Shown here: positions 4,887 to 60,042 of the stretch, one piece after another
Layout of the letters: each line of letters opens with the position of its first letter
How positions within the stretch are numbered: position 1 is the first letter of the stretch
Assembly: GCF_017348835.2 (NCBI RefSeq)
Contig: NZ_CP071375.1
DNA: 64,000 nt
Source of the DNA: Escherichia coli
GTDB lineage: Bacteria > Pseudomonadota > Gammaproteobacteria > Enterobacterales > Enterobacteriaceae
Reading direction: 5' to 3' (one strand)
Notes under the pieces: model-generated
What the model was told of the DNA's origin: nothing
Seen by the model: the letters and a program-made list of their open reading frames with translations, nothing else
The model's database searches: none
Translations under genes and position numbers: made by a program

Positions 4887-5073
4887 AATCGCTCACCAGT
4901 AAGTTTGCCGCAGCGTATGCTGCTTTTTCCCTGACAGCCTCAGAAAGGGCGTCGTCGGCAGCCATTTCATTCAGCACTTTCAAAACGCAGCCCAGCGCGT
5001 CCGGAACGTATCCTAAGTCTCCGCTGGCGATTTCCGCGTACCGCTTGCGTATTAACTCACAATATTTTTCCAC
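4873..5073 (-). CDS. yaeP: UPF0253 small protein YaeP
   Basis: ORF 4873..5091; probable GTG start at 5073 gives the 66 aa product. Confidence 0.7.
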
Positions 5074-5238: not shown

Positions 5239-5784
5239 ATGGCGCTTAAAGCGACAATTTATAAAGCGACGGTTAATGTGGCCGATCTCGACCGCAACCA
5301 GTTTCTCGATGCCTCTCTGACGCTGGCGCGCCACCCTTCAGAAACCCAGGAGCGTATGATGCTGCGCTTGCTGGCGTGGCTGAAATATGCTGATGAACGT
5401 CTGCAATTTACCCGTGGTTTGTGTGCCGATGATGAGCCGGAAGCGTGGCTGCGTAACGATCACCTGGGCATTGATTTGTGGATTGAGCTGGGGCTGCCGG
5501 ATGAGCGGCGGATTAAGAAAGCCTGCACCCAGGCCGCAGAAGTGGCGCTGTTTACCTATAATAGTCGGGCGGCGCAAATCTGGTGGCAGCAAAATCAGAG
5601 CAAATGTGTGCAGTTTGCCAATCTTTCCGTCTGGTATCTGGACGATGAACAACTGGCGAAAGTAAGCGCCTTTGCCGATCGTACCATGACGCTGCAGGCA
5701 ACGATTCAGGATGGCGTGATCTGGTTATCGGATGATAAGAATAATCTGGAAGTGAACTTAACCGCCTGGCAACAACCTTCATGA
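5239..5784 (+). CDS. yaeQ: YaeQ family protein
   Basis: 181 aa ORF; synteny. Confidence 0.8.
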
Positions 5785-51543: not shown

Positions 51544-51822
51544 TTACCCAAAGAGCACCGCGTGAGTTCCAGTTCTCTCAAATCGTAAAAGTTTATCGGT
51601 AAGTTTGTAAATCAGGAGCCAGTCCGGTTCGACATGAGCATCGCGATAACCTTTCCATGAACCCTGCAGCGGGTGGTCTTTATAAACAGCTGGAAGCGGT
51701 AAAGTATTATTGATAAGAAGCGTCATAAGATATTTCAATTTATTCATATCATTATGACGCTTTTGTGCAAGTTTTACATCCTTTGAAAATTGTCCCGAGT
51801 ATTCAATATCCCTTTGAATCAT
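51544..51822 (-). CDS. yafQ: Type II toxin YafQ (RelE-like mRNA interferase)
   Basis: 92 aa; paired with upstream dinJ. Confidence 0.85.
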   Translation of the reverse strand: MIQRDIEYSGQFSKDVKLAQKRHNDMNKLKYLMTLLINNTLPLPAVYKDHPLQGSWKGYRDAHVEPDWLLIYKLTDKLLRFERTGTHAVLFG

Positions 51823-51824
51823 AT

Positions 51825-52085
51825 TTAAATTCCTAATTTATCAAATAAATCATCGGCGTCTTTGGCCTTATGAACATCAACGCCAGCTTCGCTGTTTTTG
51901 ATTGATTGAATGGTTAATTGATTAGGCTCGCGTAAATCAAACGGCAATGCCTTTTCACGCGCGACCTTTGTGAGGGTTATGCGAACCAGGTCAGAGATGG
52001 TCAGCCCCATCCCGGCCAGTACGTCCGCCGCCTGATTCTTCAGATCTTCATCGATTCGGGCGCGAACAAATGCATTTGCAGCCAT
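51825..52085 (-). CDS. dinJ: Antitoxin DinJ
   Basis: 86 aa RHH-type ORF upstream of yafQ. Confidence 0.85.
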   Translation of the reverse strand: MAANAFVRARIDEDLKNQAADVLAGMGLTISDLVRITLTKVAREKALPFDLREPNQLTIQSIKNSEAGVDVHKAKDADDLFDKLGI

Positions 52086-53100: not shown

Positions 53101-53457
53101 TTACATCTGGGCTGAAAACTCACGTTCTAAGACATCAACAATGAGCTGGTTTTTTGAAATGGAATGTTGTCTGGCGACGATGGTCAGCCGCGAATCAATG
53201 TGATGAGGAACACGAAGCGTCAGGCGTTTTTGCTCTTCTTCTTCACGAAAAGGGGCAATACCGTCCTCTTCACAATCCGCCATCCACTCATCCAGCGCGC
53301 TTTCGCCCTCACGATATAATGCCTCAATGCTTGTGGCTACAAAGTCACAATAACCGTTTACATTGAGGAATTTGCCGCGAAATGCATTGATATCGGCTTC
53401 AAATGTCACTGCGGCTGGTTGACCTTTAATTGTGATAATGTTCGATGCTTTATTCAT
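53101..53457 (-). CDS. HicB-like antitoxin (N-terminal HicB fold plus C-terminal RHH)
   Basis: 118 aa; C-terminus LTLRVPHHIDSRLTIVARQHSISKNQLIVDVLEREF looks like an RHH DNA-binding domain; overlaps the upstream ORF by 8 nt. Confidence 0.45.
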   Translation of the reverse strand: MNKASNIITIKGQPAAVTFEADINAFRGKFLNVNGYCDFVATSIEALYREGESALDEWMADCEEDGIAPFREEEEQKRLTLRVPHHIDSRLTIVARQHSISKNQLIVDVLEREFSAQM

Positions 53458-53749
53458 AATCTACCCCTACACAGTTAACAAACCACTCCTTAAGACCTGC
53501 TACTGCGCCTTTATCCATCACATTCTTTGGATGTGGCTCATGTGTACTGAATTTGGTCGTTCCAATCTGAAATTTCCTTCTGGACCCATTGTTATTTTTT
53601 ATTGTTCCACCCACCGCTTTAATGAGCGCAACAACATCATCCCATTTAATTCCAGATTTTGGCGGCTCCGTCATTACATCGTCGAATGTTTTTCTATGGC
53701 GGGAGCCTAGCGCGCTGACCTTAATCATACTATCAATCCATGACATCAT
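53450..53749 (-). CDS. Putative HicA-like toxin partner (uncertain)
   Basis: 99 aa ORF translationally coupled to the HicB-like gene; family assignment is by position only. Confidence 0.3.
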   Translation of the reverse strand: MMSWIDSMIKVSALGSRHRKTFDDVMTEPPKSGIKWDDVVALIKAVGGTIKNNNGSRRKFQIGTTKFSTHEPHPKNVMDKGAVAGLKEWFVNCVGVDYE

Positions 53750-53832: not shown

Positions 53833-55572
53833 TCAACTCAACGCCCCCATAATCTTCAACTCCAGCTCATCCGGCACTTCGTTATACGACAGCACATGCA
53901 GCCCCGGCGCAAACAACCTTGCGTAGCGCGCTAGCAAAGGGCGCAGCTGCGGCGGCACCAGCAGCACCGGGTCTTTCCCCGCCGCTTTCATCTGCTCCTT
54001 CACCTGCGGCATCGTGCTCTGGAACTGGTTGAGCATATTCGGGTCGACCGGCACGCTGTCGAGCATCACTTTGCCGCCCTGTTGCGCCTGATTCACCACG
54101 TTGGTCAGCAGATTTTCCAGCTCATTATTCAGCGTATACACCGTCAGCTCCTGCTTGCGAACGAAAGGATGAGTAATGCTGCGCCGCAGCGCCAGGCGCA
54201 CATCGGCCGCCAGCAGAATATGATCTTTGGTCACCGCGCTACTGGCGACCAGCACGGTGGCGATGGTGACGATGTCGCGCAGGGAAACGCCTTCGGTCAG
54301 CAGCGCACGGTACACTTTCAGCAACTGGCTGTAATTCAGCGCCGCGCTCAAATCCTCCGCCAGGCGCGGTGCCATTGACGACAAACGGTTATGCAACTGC
54401 GTGATGTCATCATAGTTAAACAAATCAGGAATATAACTGCGCACAATCTTATTCACATGGGTGGCAATCACGCTGGCGCTGTCGATCACCTGATACCCCA
54501 TATTCAGCGCCTTCGCTTTCTGCGCAGGCTGGATCCAGGTGACTGGCATCCCATACGCCGGGTCGTTCCCCAGCACGCCGTCTATCTCGCCGTAGGTTTC
54601 GCTGGAGGGCAGGGCCATCAGTTTATCCGCCGGAATATCCGCTTCATCAGCCTTAATGCCGTTGATGAAAATGGCGTACTGGCTGGGCTTGAGGCGGAAA
54701 TTTTCCCTAATGCGGATCTCCGGCAGCAGCACGCCGTTGCCGTCGGATATCACCTGCCGCACGCCGCGGATCCGCTGGGTGAGCGGGTTACCCTGTGCTT
54801 TATCGACCAGCGCTACTAGCTTGTAGCCAAGGCTTAAGCTGATGGGTTCGATCAGCGGAATGGTTTCCCAACTGACCTGTTGCTCGCTGGTTTCAGTGAT
54901 GGTGCGGGTCAGCGTTTCGAGGCTTTTCTCCTCCGCCTCTGCCGCCTGCGGCTGTTTGCTCATTCGCCAGCCGGTAAAGCCAAGCAGGGCGCTGAACATC
55001 AGGAACGGCAGGTGCGGCATCCCCGGCACCACTGCCAGCACAAACATAATTCCGGTAGCGGTGTAGAGCACCGACGGGCTTGCCAGCAGTTGGTTACGCA
55101 CGTCATGGGCGATATCGCCGTTGTCGCTGACGCGGGTGACGATAATCGCCGCTGCGGTGGAGAGCAGCAGGGAAGGGATCTGCGCCACCAGCCCATCGCC
55201 GATGGTCATCAGCACATATTGCTGGAAGGCGGCATCGGCGCTCAGGTTGTATTTGAAGATCCTGATACAGACGCCGCCGATCAGGTTGATCGCCAGAATC
55301 ATCATCCCGGCGATGGCATCCCCGCGCACAAACTTCGATGCCCCGTCCATCGCGCCGTAGAAATCGGCTTCGCTGGCGACATCTTTACGCCGGGTTTGCG
55401 CCTGCGCCTGGTTGATCAATCCGGCGTTAAGGTCGGCGTCAATCGCCATCTGCTTGCCGGGCATCGCGTCAAGGGTAAAGCGGGCAGAAACCTCGGAAAT
55501 ACGCTCGGCCCCTTTGGTGACGACAATAAAGTTGATTGTCAACAGCGTCAGTAAATCCGAGCGTGAAAGCAT
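53833..55572 (-). pseudogene. lfhA: FlhA-like flagellar export protein fragment (Flag-2 remnant)
   Basis: 579 aa ORF homologous to FlhA but lacking the N-terminal ~120 aa. Confidence 0.7.
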
Positions 55573-55574
55573 TA

Positions 55575-56302
55575 TCGCCGCGCTGCACGGGCAGTCGATT
55601 TTTAACGGTGGTGGGCTGTCGCCGTTAAATAAAATCAGCCCGTCTCATCCGCCAAAACCTGCCACCGTGGCGGTGCCGGAAGAGACGGAGAAAAAAGCGC
55701 GTGATGTGAATGAGAAAACGGCGCTGCTGAAGAAGAAATCCGCCACCGAGCTTGGCGAGTTGGCAACCAGTATCAACACCATTGCCCGTGATGCGCATAT
55801 GGAAGCGAATCTGGAGATGGAGATTGTTCCCCAGGGATTACGCGTGCTGATTAAAGACGACCAGAATCGCAATATGTTCGAACGCGGCAGCGCGAAGATT
55901 ATGCCGTTCTTTAAAACGCTGCTGGTGGAGCTAGCGCCAGTGTTCGACTCGCTCGATAACAAAATTATTATTACCGGGCATACCGATGCGATGGCCTACA
56001 AAAACAATATCTACAACAACTGGAACCTTTCGGGCGATCGCGCGCTTTCAGCTCGTCGGGTGCTGGAAGAGGCCGGAATGCCGGAAGATAAAGTGATGCA
56101 GGTAAGCGCAATGGCGGACCAGATGCTGCTGGATGCCAAAAATCCGCAAAGCGCGGGCAATCGGCGTATTGAGATTATGGTGCTGACCAAAAGTGCGTCC
56201 GATACGCTGTATCAATACTTTGGTCAGCATGGGGATAAAGTGGTGCAGCCACTGGTGCAAAAGCTGGATAAGCAGCAGGTGCTTTCGCAGCGAACGCGTT
56301 AA
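55575..56302 (+). pseudogene. lafU: MotB-like fragment (Flag-2 remnant)
   Basis: OmpA-like C-terminal domain (NWNLSGDRALSARRV...NRRIEI); the 5' part of the ORF is antisense lfhA. Confidence 0.6.
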
Positions 56303-56340
56303 ATGCTGAATCTTTACGCATTTCTCAAACCCTGAAATCA

Positions 56341-56356
56341 CTGTATACTTTACCAG
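56341..56356. promoter_or_regulatory. LexA (SOS) box of dinB
   Basis: CTGTATACTTTACCAG just upstream of the dinB start. Confidence 0.7.
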
Positions 56357-56372
56357 TGTTGAGAGGTGAGCA

Positions 56373-57428
56373 ATGCGTAAAATCATTCATGTGGATATGG
56401 ACTGCTTTTTCGCAGCGGTGGAGATGCGCGACAATCCCGCCCTGCGCGATATCCCTATTGCTATTGGCGGCAGCCGCGAACGTCGAGGGGTGATCAGCAC
56501 CGCCAATTATCCCGCGCGTAAATTTGGCGTACGTAGCGCTATGCCGACAGGGATGGCGCTCAAATTATGCCCACATCTCACCTTGCTTCCGGGGCGCTTT
56601 GACGCCTACAAAGAAGCCTCAAATCATATCCGTGAAATCTTCTCGCGCTACACCTCGCGCATTGAACCGTTGTCACTGGATGAAGCCTATCTCGATGTCA
56701 CCGATAGCGTCCATTGCCACGGTTCTGCGACCCTCATCGCCCAGGAAATCCGCCAGACGATTTTCAGCGAGCTGCAACTGACGGCGTCTGCGGGCGTGGC
56801 ACCAGTAAAGTTTCTCGCCAAAATCGCCTCCGACATGAATAAACCCAACGGCCAGTTTGTGATTACGCCGGCAGAAGTTCCGGCATTTTTACAAACCTTA
56901 CCACTGGCAAAAATCCCCGGCGTCGGCAAAGTCTCGGCGGCAAAACTGGAAGCGATGGGGCTGCGGACCTGCGGTGATGTACAAAAGTGTGATCTGGTGA
57001 TGCTGCTTAAACGCTTTGGCAAATTTGGCCGCATTTTGTGGGAGCGTAGTCAGGGGATTGACGAACGCGATGTTAACAGCGAACGGTTGCGAAAATCCGT
57101 CGGCGTGGAACGCACGATGGCGGAAGATATTCATCACTGGTCTGAATGTGAAGCGATTATCGAGCGGCTGTATCCGGAACTTGAACGCCGTCTGGCAAAG
57201 GTAAAACCTGATTTACTGATTGCTCGCCAGGGGGTGAAATTAAAGTTCGACGATTTTCAGCAAACCACTCAGGAGCACGTCTGGCCGCGGCTGAATAAAG
57301 CTGACTTAATCGCCACCGCGCGTAAAACCTGGGATGAACGCCGCGGCGGGCGCGGTGTGCGACTGGTGGGGCTGCATGTGACGTTGCTTGACCCGCAAAT
57401 GGAAAGACAACTGGTGCTGGGATTATGA
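56373..57428 (+). CDS. dinB: DNA polymerase IV
   Basis: 351 aa; [18 protein letters not shown]-family signature. Confidence 0.9.
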
Positions 57429-57877
57429 ATAACATACAAATAAGAAACTATCAGCCTGGCGATTTTCAGCAACTATGCGCTATTTTCATTAGAGCGGTTA
57501 TGATGACCGCCAGTCAGCATTATTCACCACAACAAATTGCCGCCTGGGCGCAGATTGACGAATCTCGCTGGAAGGAGAAACTCGCGAAATCACAAGTGCG
57601 GGTTGCAGTCATTAATGCACAACCGGTTGGTTTTATTTCCCGCATTGAACATTATATCGATATGTTATTTGTTGACCCTGAATACACCCGCCGTGGGGTT
57701 GCCAGCGCTTTGTTAAAACCTTGGATTAAGTCTGAATCCGAACTTACGGTGGACGCAAGCATAACCGCAAAACCCTTTTTTGAACGTTATGGTTTTCAGA
57801 CAGTTAAGCAGCAGCGCGTTGAATGCCGGGGAGCGTGGTTTACTAATTTTTCTATGCGATATAAACCGCAACATTAA
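57425..57877 (+). CDS. yafP: GNAT acetyltransferase YafP
   Basis: 150 aa; start overlaps the dinB stop (ATGA). Confidence 0.8.
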
Positions 57878-58183: not shown

Positions 58184-58450
58184 ATGGAATGGTACATGGG
58201 CAAATATATTCGTCCCTTATCCGATGCGGTATTTACCATCGCATCTGATGACCTGTGGATCGAGAGTTTAGCGATCCAACAATTACACACCACGGCAAAT
58301 TTACCCAACATGCAGCGCGTAGTGGGGATGCCAGATTTACACCCCGGACGCGGCTACCCGATTGGCGCAGCGTTCTTCTCTGTTGGTCGTTTTTACCCGA
58401 CAAGACGTCGCGGTAACAGTGCTGGAAACAGAAACAGGTCGTTACTCTGA
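58184..58450 (+). pseudogene. ykfJ: RtcB-like fragment
   Basis: 88 aa ORF resembling an RtcB fragment; fused out of frame to prfH. Confidence 0.5.
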
Positions 58451-58786
58451 CACCCTGCGTTCAGCGCTGGTTTCTCTGAATGGCGACAACGCATGGGCAT
58501 TAAGCGAAAGCTGGTATGGCACTATTCAGTGGATTTGTCGGAGTCCGTATCGCCCACATCATGGGCGTAAAAACTGGTTTCTGGGCATTGGGCGTTTTAC
58601 TGCTGATGAGCAGGAACAATCCGACGCGGTCCGTTATGAGACGCTGCGTTCGTCGGGGCCGGGCGGTCAACATGTCAATAAAACCGATTCGGCGGTGCGC
58701 GCCACGCATCTGGCTACCTGGATTAGCGTGAAGGTTCAGTCAGAGCGCAGCCAGCATGCCAACAAGCGGCTGGCACGATTGCTGAT
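58397..58786 (+). pseudogene. prfH: Peptide chain release factor homolog PrfH, 5' part, interrupted by an IS element
   Basis: GGQ motif [17 protein letters not shown]; reading frame continues at 60097. Confidence 0.7.
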
Positions 58787-58828
58787 TGAACCGCCCCGGG
58801 TTTCCTGGAGAGTGTTTTATCTGTGAAC

Positions 58829-59716
58829 TCAGGCTGCCAGATCATTATTTCCGATGGAAGCATAATAAGCTTTTTCTGCTTCTGCCGGAGGAATATGGCC
58901 CAGCCTTTCCAGCAATCGTCGATTGTTATACCAGTCCACCCACGTTAGTGTGGCCAGTTCCACTTCTGTCCGGTTTTTCCAGCTCTTACGGTGTATTACC
59001 TCCGCTTTGTAAAGACCATTGATGCTCTCCGCCATCGCGTTGTCATACGAGTCGCCAGTACTCCCTGTTGATGCCAGTAATCCGGCTTCCTTAAGCCGCT
59101 GCGTGTAGGCCAGCGATACATACTGAGAACCTTTATCACTGTGATGGATTGTGCCGGACGGCCGACGGGCCCACAACGCCTGCTCCAGTGCATCCAGCAC
59201 GAATGTTGTTTCCATGGATGATGAGACCTGCCATCCCACGATGTATCCGGCGAACACATCAATGATGAACGCCACATAAACGAAGCCCTGCCATGTGCTT
59301 ACCCAGGTAAAATCAGCCACCCACAACTGGTCTGGACGTTCTGCCACGAACTGACGGTTTACGCGGTCGCATGCGGCAACGGCTTTCCGGCTGACGGTAG
59401 TGCGGACCTTTTTACCCCGGAGAACACCGGCAAGTCCCATAACTGCCATGAGACGTGCCACAGTGCATCTGGCCACTCTGATACCTTCCCGTAACAACTG
59501 ACGCCAGACTTTACGCACACCGTATACCTGGTGATTTTCATCGTATACGCGCTGTATCTCTTTCTTCAGCCAGTCATCGTGCTGCGCACGGGCACTGCGT
59601 TTATCCGGATGATGTCGCTGTTGCTGACAATGGTAATACGTTGACGGGGCAATATGCAGTTCGCTGCATACCGGTCCGACCCCGTACTGCTCACGCAGCT
59701 TATCCAGCAGTGGCAT
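58829..59716 (-). CDS. IS3-family transposase OrfB (DDE integrase domain)
   Basis: 295 aa rve-domain ORF; probably expressed as an OrfAB fusion by -1 frameshifting. Confidence 0.85.
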   Translation of the reverse strand: MPLLDKLREQYGVGPVCSELHIAPSTYYHCQQQRHHPDKRSARAQHDDWLKKEIQRVYDENHQVYGVRKVWRQLLREGIRVARCTVARLMAVMGLAGVLRGKKVRTTVSRKAVAACDRVNRQFVAERPDQLWVADFTWVSTWQGFVYVAFIIDVFAGYIVGWQVSSSMETTFVLDALEQALWARRPSGTIHHSDKGSQYVSLAYTQRLKEAGLLASTGSTGDSYDNAMAESINGLYKAEVIHRKSWKNRTEVELATLTWVDWYNNRRLLERLGHIPPAEAEKAYYASIGNNDLAA

Positions 59717-60042
59717 TATTTTTTCCAGAGGCGGTCGAACTCCGCCTTCGCAAAATAAGCGGAAGCCTGGCGAAGGATATCGTTACTGCGGCGCAGTTCA
59801 CGATTTTCACGTTCCAGCTCTTTCAGACGCTGACGTTCAGCGGTGGTGAGTCCACCATCACCACTCCCGGTATCCCGCTCATGCTGGCGAACCCAGACAC
59901 GCAGAGTCTCCGGCGTACAGCCAATCTTTGGGGCAATGGAACAAATTGCCGCCCACTGTGAGTCATATTCATCCTGACTTTCCAGAACCATACGAATCGC
60001 CCGCTGACGGACTTCGGGGGAAAAACGAGTATTTTTAGTCAT
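59716..60042 (-). CDS. IS3-family transposase OrfA (HTH)
   Basis: 108 aa, [22 protein letters not shown]...; leucine-zipper-like C-terminus. Confidence 0.85.

Follow-up and report, generated by a model that had tools for sequence, protein, structure and literature searches.

The window analyzed here is a 64-kb (64,000-nucleotide) stretch of Escherichia coli DNA that carries an ordinary two-gene dinB-yafP operon allele, a real and already known arrangement. The features of the operon, all on the + strand, are the following.

56322-56349, + strand: sigma-70-type promoter-like site from a consensus scan (-35 TTCTCA, 16-nt spacer, -10 TATACT).
56341-56356, + strand: LexA (SOS) box of the dinB promoter, CTGTATACTTTACCAG, read directly in a region identical to K-12.
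56373-57428, + strand: dinB, DNA polymerase IV, 351 aa, intact (ORF list, K-12 identity, Pfam and NCBIfam).
57422-57428, + strand: ATTATGA in one copy, containing the overlap at 57425-57428 (pairwise and 16-sequence alignments, enumeration of K-12 repeats).
57425-57877, + strand: yafP, GNAT-family N-acetyltransferase, 150 aa, intact (ORF list, K-12 identity, Pfam and NCBIfam).

Reading the sequence against the ORF list gives ATGA at window bases 57425-57428, where the TGA stop of dinB overlaps the ATG start of yafP, as the initial annotation had stated. The two codons are fused with nothing between them, the arrangement described for the two-gene allele by Gutierrez et al. (2011), and the window ORF list contains no ORF between dinB and yafP.

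DinB matches K-12 DinB at 350 of 351 residues, N132S being the sole change. It is full length, with the K-12 catalytic residues and, in the C terminus (...ERQLVLGL), the β-clamp-binding motif QLVLGL. The catalytic core, HHH and little-finger (IMS_C) domains all pass in Pfam (IMS 172.7 bits, IMS_C 54.4, IMS_HHH_1 47.0 and IMS_HHH 34.8), and the protein scores 546.2 bits on the NCBIfam Pol IV equivalog NF002677 (cut-off 256). By these profiles it is a Y-family DNA polymerase IV, for which translesion polymerase activity is predicted. YafP is identical to K-12 YafP at 144 of 150 residues (six differences), matches the Pfam families Acetyltransf_10/7/1 (Acetyltransf_10 at 70 bits) and scores 324.6 bits, against a cut-off of 146 and over residues 1-150 of 150, on the NCBIfam equivalog NF007338 (PRK09831). 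Domain content and score thus identify it as a GNAT N-acetyltransferase of the PRK09831 equivalog, with predicted activity; its acetyltransferase activity on genotoxic nitroaromatics was deduced from genetics (PMC3105422).

The surroundings of the operon are as follows.

51544-52085, - strand: dinJ-yafQ type II toxin-antitoxin (TA) pair, ∼4 kb upstream of dinB.
53101-53728, - strand: hicA-hicB toxin-antitoxin pair, between yafL and the lfhA remnant.
53833-56302: scar of the Flag-2 lateral-flagella deletion, as in K-12, in which lafU (+ strand) directly adjoins a truncated, flhA-like lfhA (- strand) immediately before dinB.
58196-58814: rtcB' and prfH' remnants, interrupted by an IS3-family element.
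58829-60042, - strand: IS3-family programmed-frameshift transposase.
From 60098, beyond the IS3-family element: the remainder of prfH, followed by pepD, gpt, frsA and crl.

The dinJ-yafQ position was obtained by mapping the annotation of strain PE164 to the window (offset 47,299); even without yafNO, the region thus keeps a TA pair named for damage inducibility (din). K-12 has rayT (REP-associated tyrosine transposase) at the site occupied by hicA-hicB in the window, a second TA-related difference nearby. At the Flag-2 site of the E. marmotae locus (L017) the sigma, motA and motB genes are intact. The window and PE164 differ by one mismatch over the 12.8 kb leading up to the IS element; past it (window 60098, PE164 L002 12800) PE164 continues into prophage tail genes and the window into prfH-pepD. 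The PE164 pepD segment lies ∼16 kb away in the opposite orientation, and strain F2_81 is collinear with the window, a pattern that probably reflects an IS-mediated rearrangement in PE164.

All 73 bases preceding dinB match the K-12 dinB promoter region, and it is on this identity that the LexA box at 56341-56356 is assigned. The bare motif CTGT-N8-CCAG is no guide in itself, with two matches in the window against 1.36 expected, not above chance, and the 20-mer LexA consensus has no match in the window with up to three mismatches; the dinB box is weaker than consensus, in K-12 as well. The -10-like TATACT falls within the box, so that the LexA box overlaps the promoter as in members of the SOS (LexA) regulon. 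LexA control of dinB is established in K-12 and restated in PMC7167474; by promoter identity, the box and the SOS-regulated operon proposed in the initial annotation hold up, and we infer that the promoter functions, that LexA binds it and that transcription of the operon in the window is damage-inducible. No terminator-like or promoter-like site was found on the + strand at the dinB/yafP junction, and a separate yafP promoter or intergenic terminator was rejected on that ground. The sole + strand terminator-like match lies inside dinB (56867-56884) and is within chance expectation.

Translation signals differ between the two genes. dinB has a Shine-Dalgarno-like GAGG 4 nt before its ATG, with an anti-SD pairing energy of -7.1 kcal/mol. 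For yafP the pairing is -4.0 kcal/mol in the short form (dinB followed directly by yafP), ending 1 nt from the ATG, and +0.4 kcal/mol in the long form (with yafNO), against an average of -3.0 kcal/mol for random 22-mers. By this comparison yafP has no usable Shine-Dalgarno sequence, so YafP synthesis probably relies on termination-reinitiation, the usual behavior of ATGA overlaps, and coupling of yafP to dinB translation is the most likely mechanism. Frameshifting was instead proposed in PMC3105422. In the resulting model, DNA damage would lead to LexA cleavage and derepression of a single promoter, with its -10 element within the LexA box, giving a bicistronic dinB-yafP mRNA; ribosomes ending dinB at the TGA would restart at the overlapping yafP ATG. 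The outcome would be Pol IV and YafP under SOS control, and no YafO mRNA interferase from the operon.

The MG1655 annotation gives the K-12 operon as dinB-yafN-yafO-yafP, the order given in the initial annotation. Alignment of the two loci shows that the window lacks exactly 759 bp and is 98.7% identical over the other 1,601 bp; the missing block holds the yafN promoter/operator region, yafN and yafO, which bears out the earlier report that the pair is missing between dinB and yafP. Tblastn with K-12 YafN and YafO detected neither protein across the whole 64 kb (best E = 1.8), nor does the window contain the adjacent genes for a Phd/YefM-type antitoxin and a YafO_toxin (PF13957) protein that mark a YafN-YafO type II system. 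The K-12 operon has the same promoter and LexA box and likewise sits between lafU' and the rtcB'/prfH' remnants, but its yafP starts 9 nt after yafO, whereas that of the window is coupled to dinB.

The 7-bp sequence ATTATGA, single in the window, is present twice in K-12, and it brackets the 759-bp yafNO block there and in all eight aligned long-form strains, one copy holding the dinB stop and the other the yafP start. The repeat was given only as ATGA in PMC3105422, and its 7-bp extent is an addition to the 2011 description. The two-gene operons of CFT073, UTI89 and ECOR B1 strains (PMC3105422, PMC7167474) have the same genes, ATGA overlap and junction sequence as the window, and other short-form strains differ from it only by allelic SNPs, the flanks of the window being 96-99% identical to theirs.

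The dinB-yafP locus is found in 5,416 of 5,426 complete E. coli genomes. The exact short junction, scored where at least 80% of a 100-bp query across it is covered (a query unable to bridge the 759-bp insert), occurs in 2,569 of the 5,426 (∼47%), and yafNO in 2,847. The same ATGA fusion was reported in 40-50% of E. coli strains by Gutierrez et al. (2011, PMC3105422), whose experiments were done in CFT073, itself a two-gene strain. The two-gene arrangement, published since 2011 and present in about half of E. coli, is thus neither rare nor new: the absence noted for this strain is real, but it is a published species-wide polymorphism and no peculiarity of the strain. The 19 closest relatives of the window locus (at least 99.2% identity), among them the pig isolates PE164 (100%) and F2_81 (99.9%), are all short-form, and the nearest long-form loci, for example that of O157:H7 TR01, are 99.0% identical. 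By these relationships the window allele belongs by descent to a short-form clade and is no private deletion.

A rare third form, dinB-yafN-yafP, was seen in three of the 5,426 genomes (MEI003, GF43 and OZ282453); they have lost ∼375 bp, almost the whole of yafO, at a short homology and keep the antitoxin gene as an orphan (MEI003, L113 1388-2165). Some long-form genomes carry decayed modules, such as the yafO with an internal stop at 1677-2075 of L014 ('capsule spontaneous mutant 25a'), and others have yafO or yafP interrupted by IS1 or IS5 (H31, H103 and H104).

We examined loci outside E. coli for the polarity of the change. Among the 600 matches listed by a genome scan with the YafP alignment, which draws in the large GNAT superfamily, were five enterobacterial loci and none from another Escherichia species. 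yafP directly follows dinB, with no yafNO, in six outgroup lineages drawn from Escherichia marmotae, Citrobacter, Kluyvera, Klebsiella and Pseudocitrobacter, with these junctions.

Escherichia marmotae: the same ATGA overlap (GGGTTATGAATAAC).
Citrobacter amalonaticus: TAA, 5 nt, ATG.
Kluyvera sichuanensis and Kluyvera genomosp. 1: stop, CC, ATG.
Klebsiella pneumoniae: stop, CC, ATG.
Pseudocitrobacter faecalis and a Pseudocitrobacter MAG: TAA, 2 nt, ATG.

The stop-CC-ATG junction common to Klebsiella and Kluyvera points to a tight adjacency that was inherited, rather than a repeated scar. Because the outgroups have dinB directly followed by yafP, the compact form is probably the older, and at the family level it probably predates the yafNO module. 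The K-12 module would accordingly be an old insert that duplicated ATTATGA. Calling the module 'absent' is correct in that it is missing from the window; the loss that the word implies is doubtful, since the outgroup genera suggest an older compact form into which yafNO was inserted. YafNO homologs with 67-69% identity also occur in K. variicola and Pectobacteriaceae in unrelated, variable neighborhoods, from which we take the module to be mobile.

However, two Pseudocitrobacter-like contigs (L104/L105, 2097-4358) carry yafN-yafO between dinB and yafP, as a 760-bp indel relative to L023/L024. Their DinB is 98.6% identical to that of P. faecalis and they have the same nqr-dinB...pepD synteny. 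In nucleotide identity to K-12 the module of these contigs stands at 77% and their dinB at 80%; the module is about as diverged as dinB, an argument for great age of the four-gene form as well. The end of their dinB (GGATTGTGA followed by TGTATAC) resembles the E. coli long form, unlike the Pseudocitrobacter short form. Given that yafNO occupies the same site in some Pseudocitrobacter contigs, the history is no simple single gain or loss. Another enterobacterial contig (L111, 1-2492) has dinB-yafN-yafO followed directly by convergent pepD, and no yafP. A candidate diverged four-gene operon on a Logan contig (L112, 1-1956, run SRR27475577) was rejected as an artefact: G-to-A changes are pervasive and the gene fails to translate to the query. 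It is E. coli-like and probably derives from damaged or chemically converted reads; in the protein database it shows up as a spurious 79%-identity YafO variant.

We are highly confident of the explanation as a whole, namely an ordinary LexA-repressed two-gene allele, most likely translated by coupling and inherited within a clade, in which the compact form is older and yafNO is an insert. Gene content, junction, sequence identities, frequencies and outgroup arrangements are direct observations; promoter use, translational coupling and polarity are its inferred parts. On balance we favor descent of the window allele from ancestors that never received the insert. A fuller reading, to which we give nearly but not quite an even chance, is that the dinB/yafP junction is an ancient, reversible landing site for yafNO: the compact state would be ancestral, the insertion single and old, and the polymorphism would have persisted across species and even genera. 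Since the insertion both states would have coexisted, interconverting by precise excision and homologous recombination. Several observations run against compact-first polarity: the four-gene operon of E. fergusonii (PMC3105422), the age of the L104/L105 module, the strain pair JNE120442/FDAARGOS1297 and the correlation between module and flank divergence, the last two of which are described below.

The most serious alternative, which we consider a substantial possibility though somewhat less than evenly likely, is secondary precise deletion. On the strength of the four-gene operon of E. fergusonii, Gutierrez et al. (2011, PMC3105422) proposed that this form came first and that three or more losses of yafNO followed; in such a model a four-gene ancestor would repeatedly have lost the block between its two ATTATGA copies, by slippage or recombination, yielding the same junction each time. 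The direct repeat needed for this is intact in all eight long forms examined. In an alignment of 16 loci (eight short and eight long), the flank tree mixes the two forms and places the short ones in four or more clades, and flanking haplotypes are common to both. The short-form JNE120442 and the long-form FDAARGOS1297 differ at 11 of 1,987 flank sites, close in both flanks; as the FDAARGOS1297 module is itself 1.8-2.5% diverged from other modules, this lineage looks like a case of recent precise deletion. Modules and flanks diverge in step (r = 0.61 and 0.48). Synonymous divergence among the eight long forms is 0.16 for dinB, 0.09 for yafN, 0.03 for yafO and 0.09 for yafP; by these values, taken from short genes, yafO looks young and yafN does not, which gives no consistent age for the module relative to its flanks. 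The separate microhomology loss of yafO alone in MEI003 and the two other third-form genomes also speaks for deletion.

For the window itself the flanks tell a less simple story. Its yafP flank differs from that of the long-form strain OkiPb01693 at one of 665 sites, and the YafP accession WP_001059871.1 is common to the window, PE164 and OkiPb01693; such proximity to a long form counts for deletion. The dinB flank, however, shows 31 differences from OkiPb01693, and the window locus is thus a mosaic produced by recombination and no clean deletion from one haplotype, and all 19 nearest relatives are short-form. Deletion as the general origin of short forms must also accommodate the compact operons of the outgroup genera and E. 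marmotae.

The repeats point in the same direction. K-12 has an 8-bp repeat pair, TATTATGA, at positions 4986 and 5706 of its locus (L001) that would delete yafNO equally well, and yet the junction predicted from this comparable pair occurs in 0 of 5,426 E. coli genomes; recurrent microhomology deletion without constraint therefore does not suffice as an explanation by itself. A second synthetic alternative-junction query gave 2,522 matches, a count that is void since the query also aligns to ordinary short forms with a 15-nt gap. An exact 7-mer repeat is expected by chance about 0.09 times, and ATTATGA is so sited that both ORFs survive, which is more easily understood as duplication by the original insertion than as a deletion substrate. 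The related sequence (T)ATTATG(A) occurs in three copies across the K-12 dinB end and dinB-yafN spacer (L001 4948-4993) and again at the yafP start (5706-5713), where chance would give about 0.09; these copies adjoin TGTATAC/TGTATA repeats resembling the yafN operator.

Two further explanations can be set aside. Relocation of yafNO elsewhere in the genome of this strain, with YafO still made independently of SOS, is very improbable: nothing supports it directly beyond the mobility of YafNO homologs in other genera, the 64-kb window holds no homolog, yafNO occupies a median of one place and at most two per positive genome among the 5,426, and the genomes with the short junction and those with yafNO (2,569 + 2,847) sum exactly to the 5,416 that have the locus, two classes that are essentially exclusive and exhaustive, so that a short-form strain with yafNO at another site must be a great rarity, if any exists. 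Still less credible is an assembly or reading artefact, a repeat collapsed or misassembled into the observed junction; nothing speaks in its favor, the 100-bp junction query being covered to at least 80% in 2,569 independent complete genomes and the 12.8 kb shared with PE164 showing one mismatch.

Opposite to the 2011 model, Fraikin, Goormaghtigh, and Van Melderen (2020, PMC7167474) call dinB-yafP of strains such as UTI89 an 'undisturbed bicistronic operon', and regard the toxin-antitoxin genes as an insertion without relation to what the operon does. They apply the same logic to relA-mazEF-mazG and relA-mazG, at another locus and with other genes, where TA-free strains likewise keep an undisturbed bicistronic operon; we take this likeness from their paper alone. 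Deletion of yafNO left SOS induction, adaptive mutation and fluoroquinolone survival all unaffected (PMC7167474), and the suggestion in the initial annotation that its absence matters for SOS-linked toxin activity was overstated in light of these published deletions. For the strain the consequence is small, one of many redundant toxin-antitoxin pairs being missing.

What is mildly new here is only the evidence on polarity and the matching presence/absence polymorphism of Pseudocitrobacter. In practice, annotation and comparative studies should not treat the K-12 operon as the default state. The landing-site reading, if true, would be contrary to the four-gene-ancestral hypothesis of 2011. More generally, the locus offers a handy test case for a question of modest interest, whether a chromosomal TA pair is acquired a single time and then lost again and again, or endures as a long-lived polymorphism at a fixed site.
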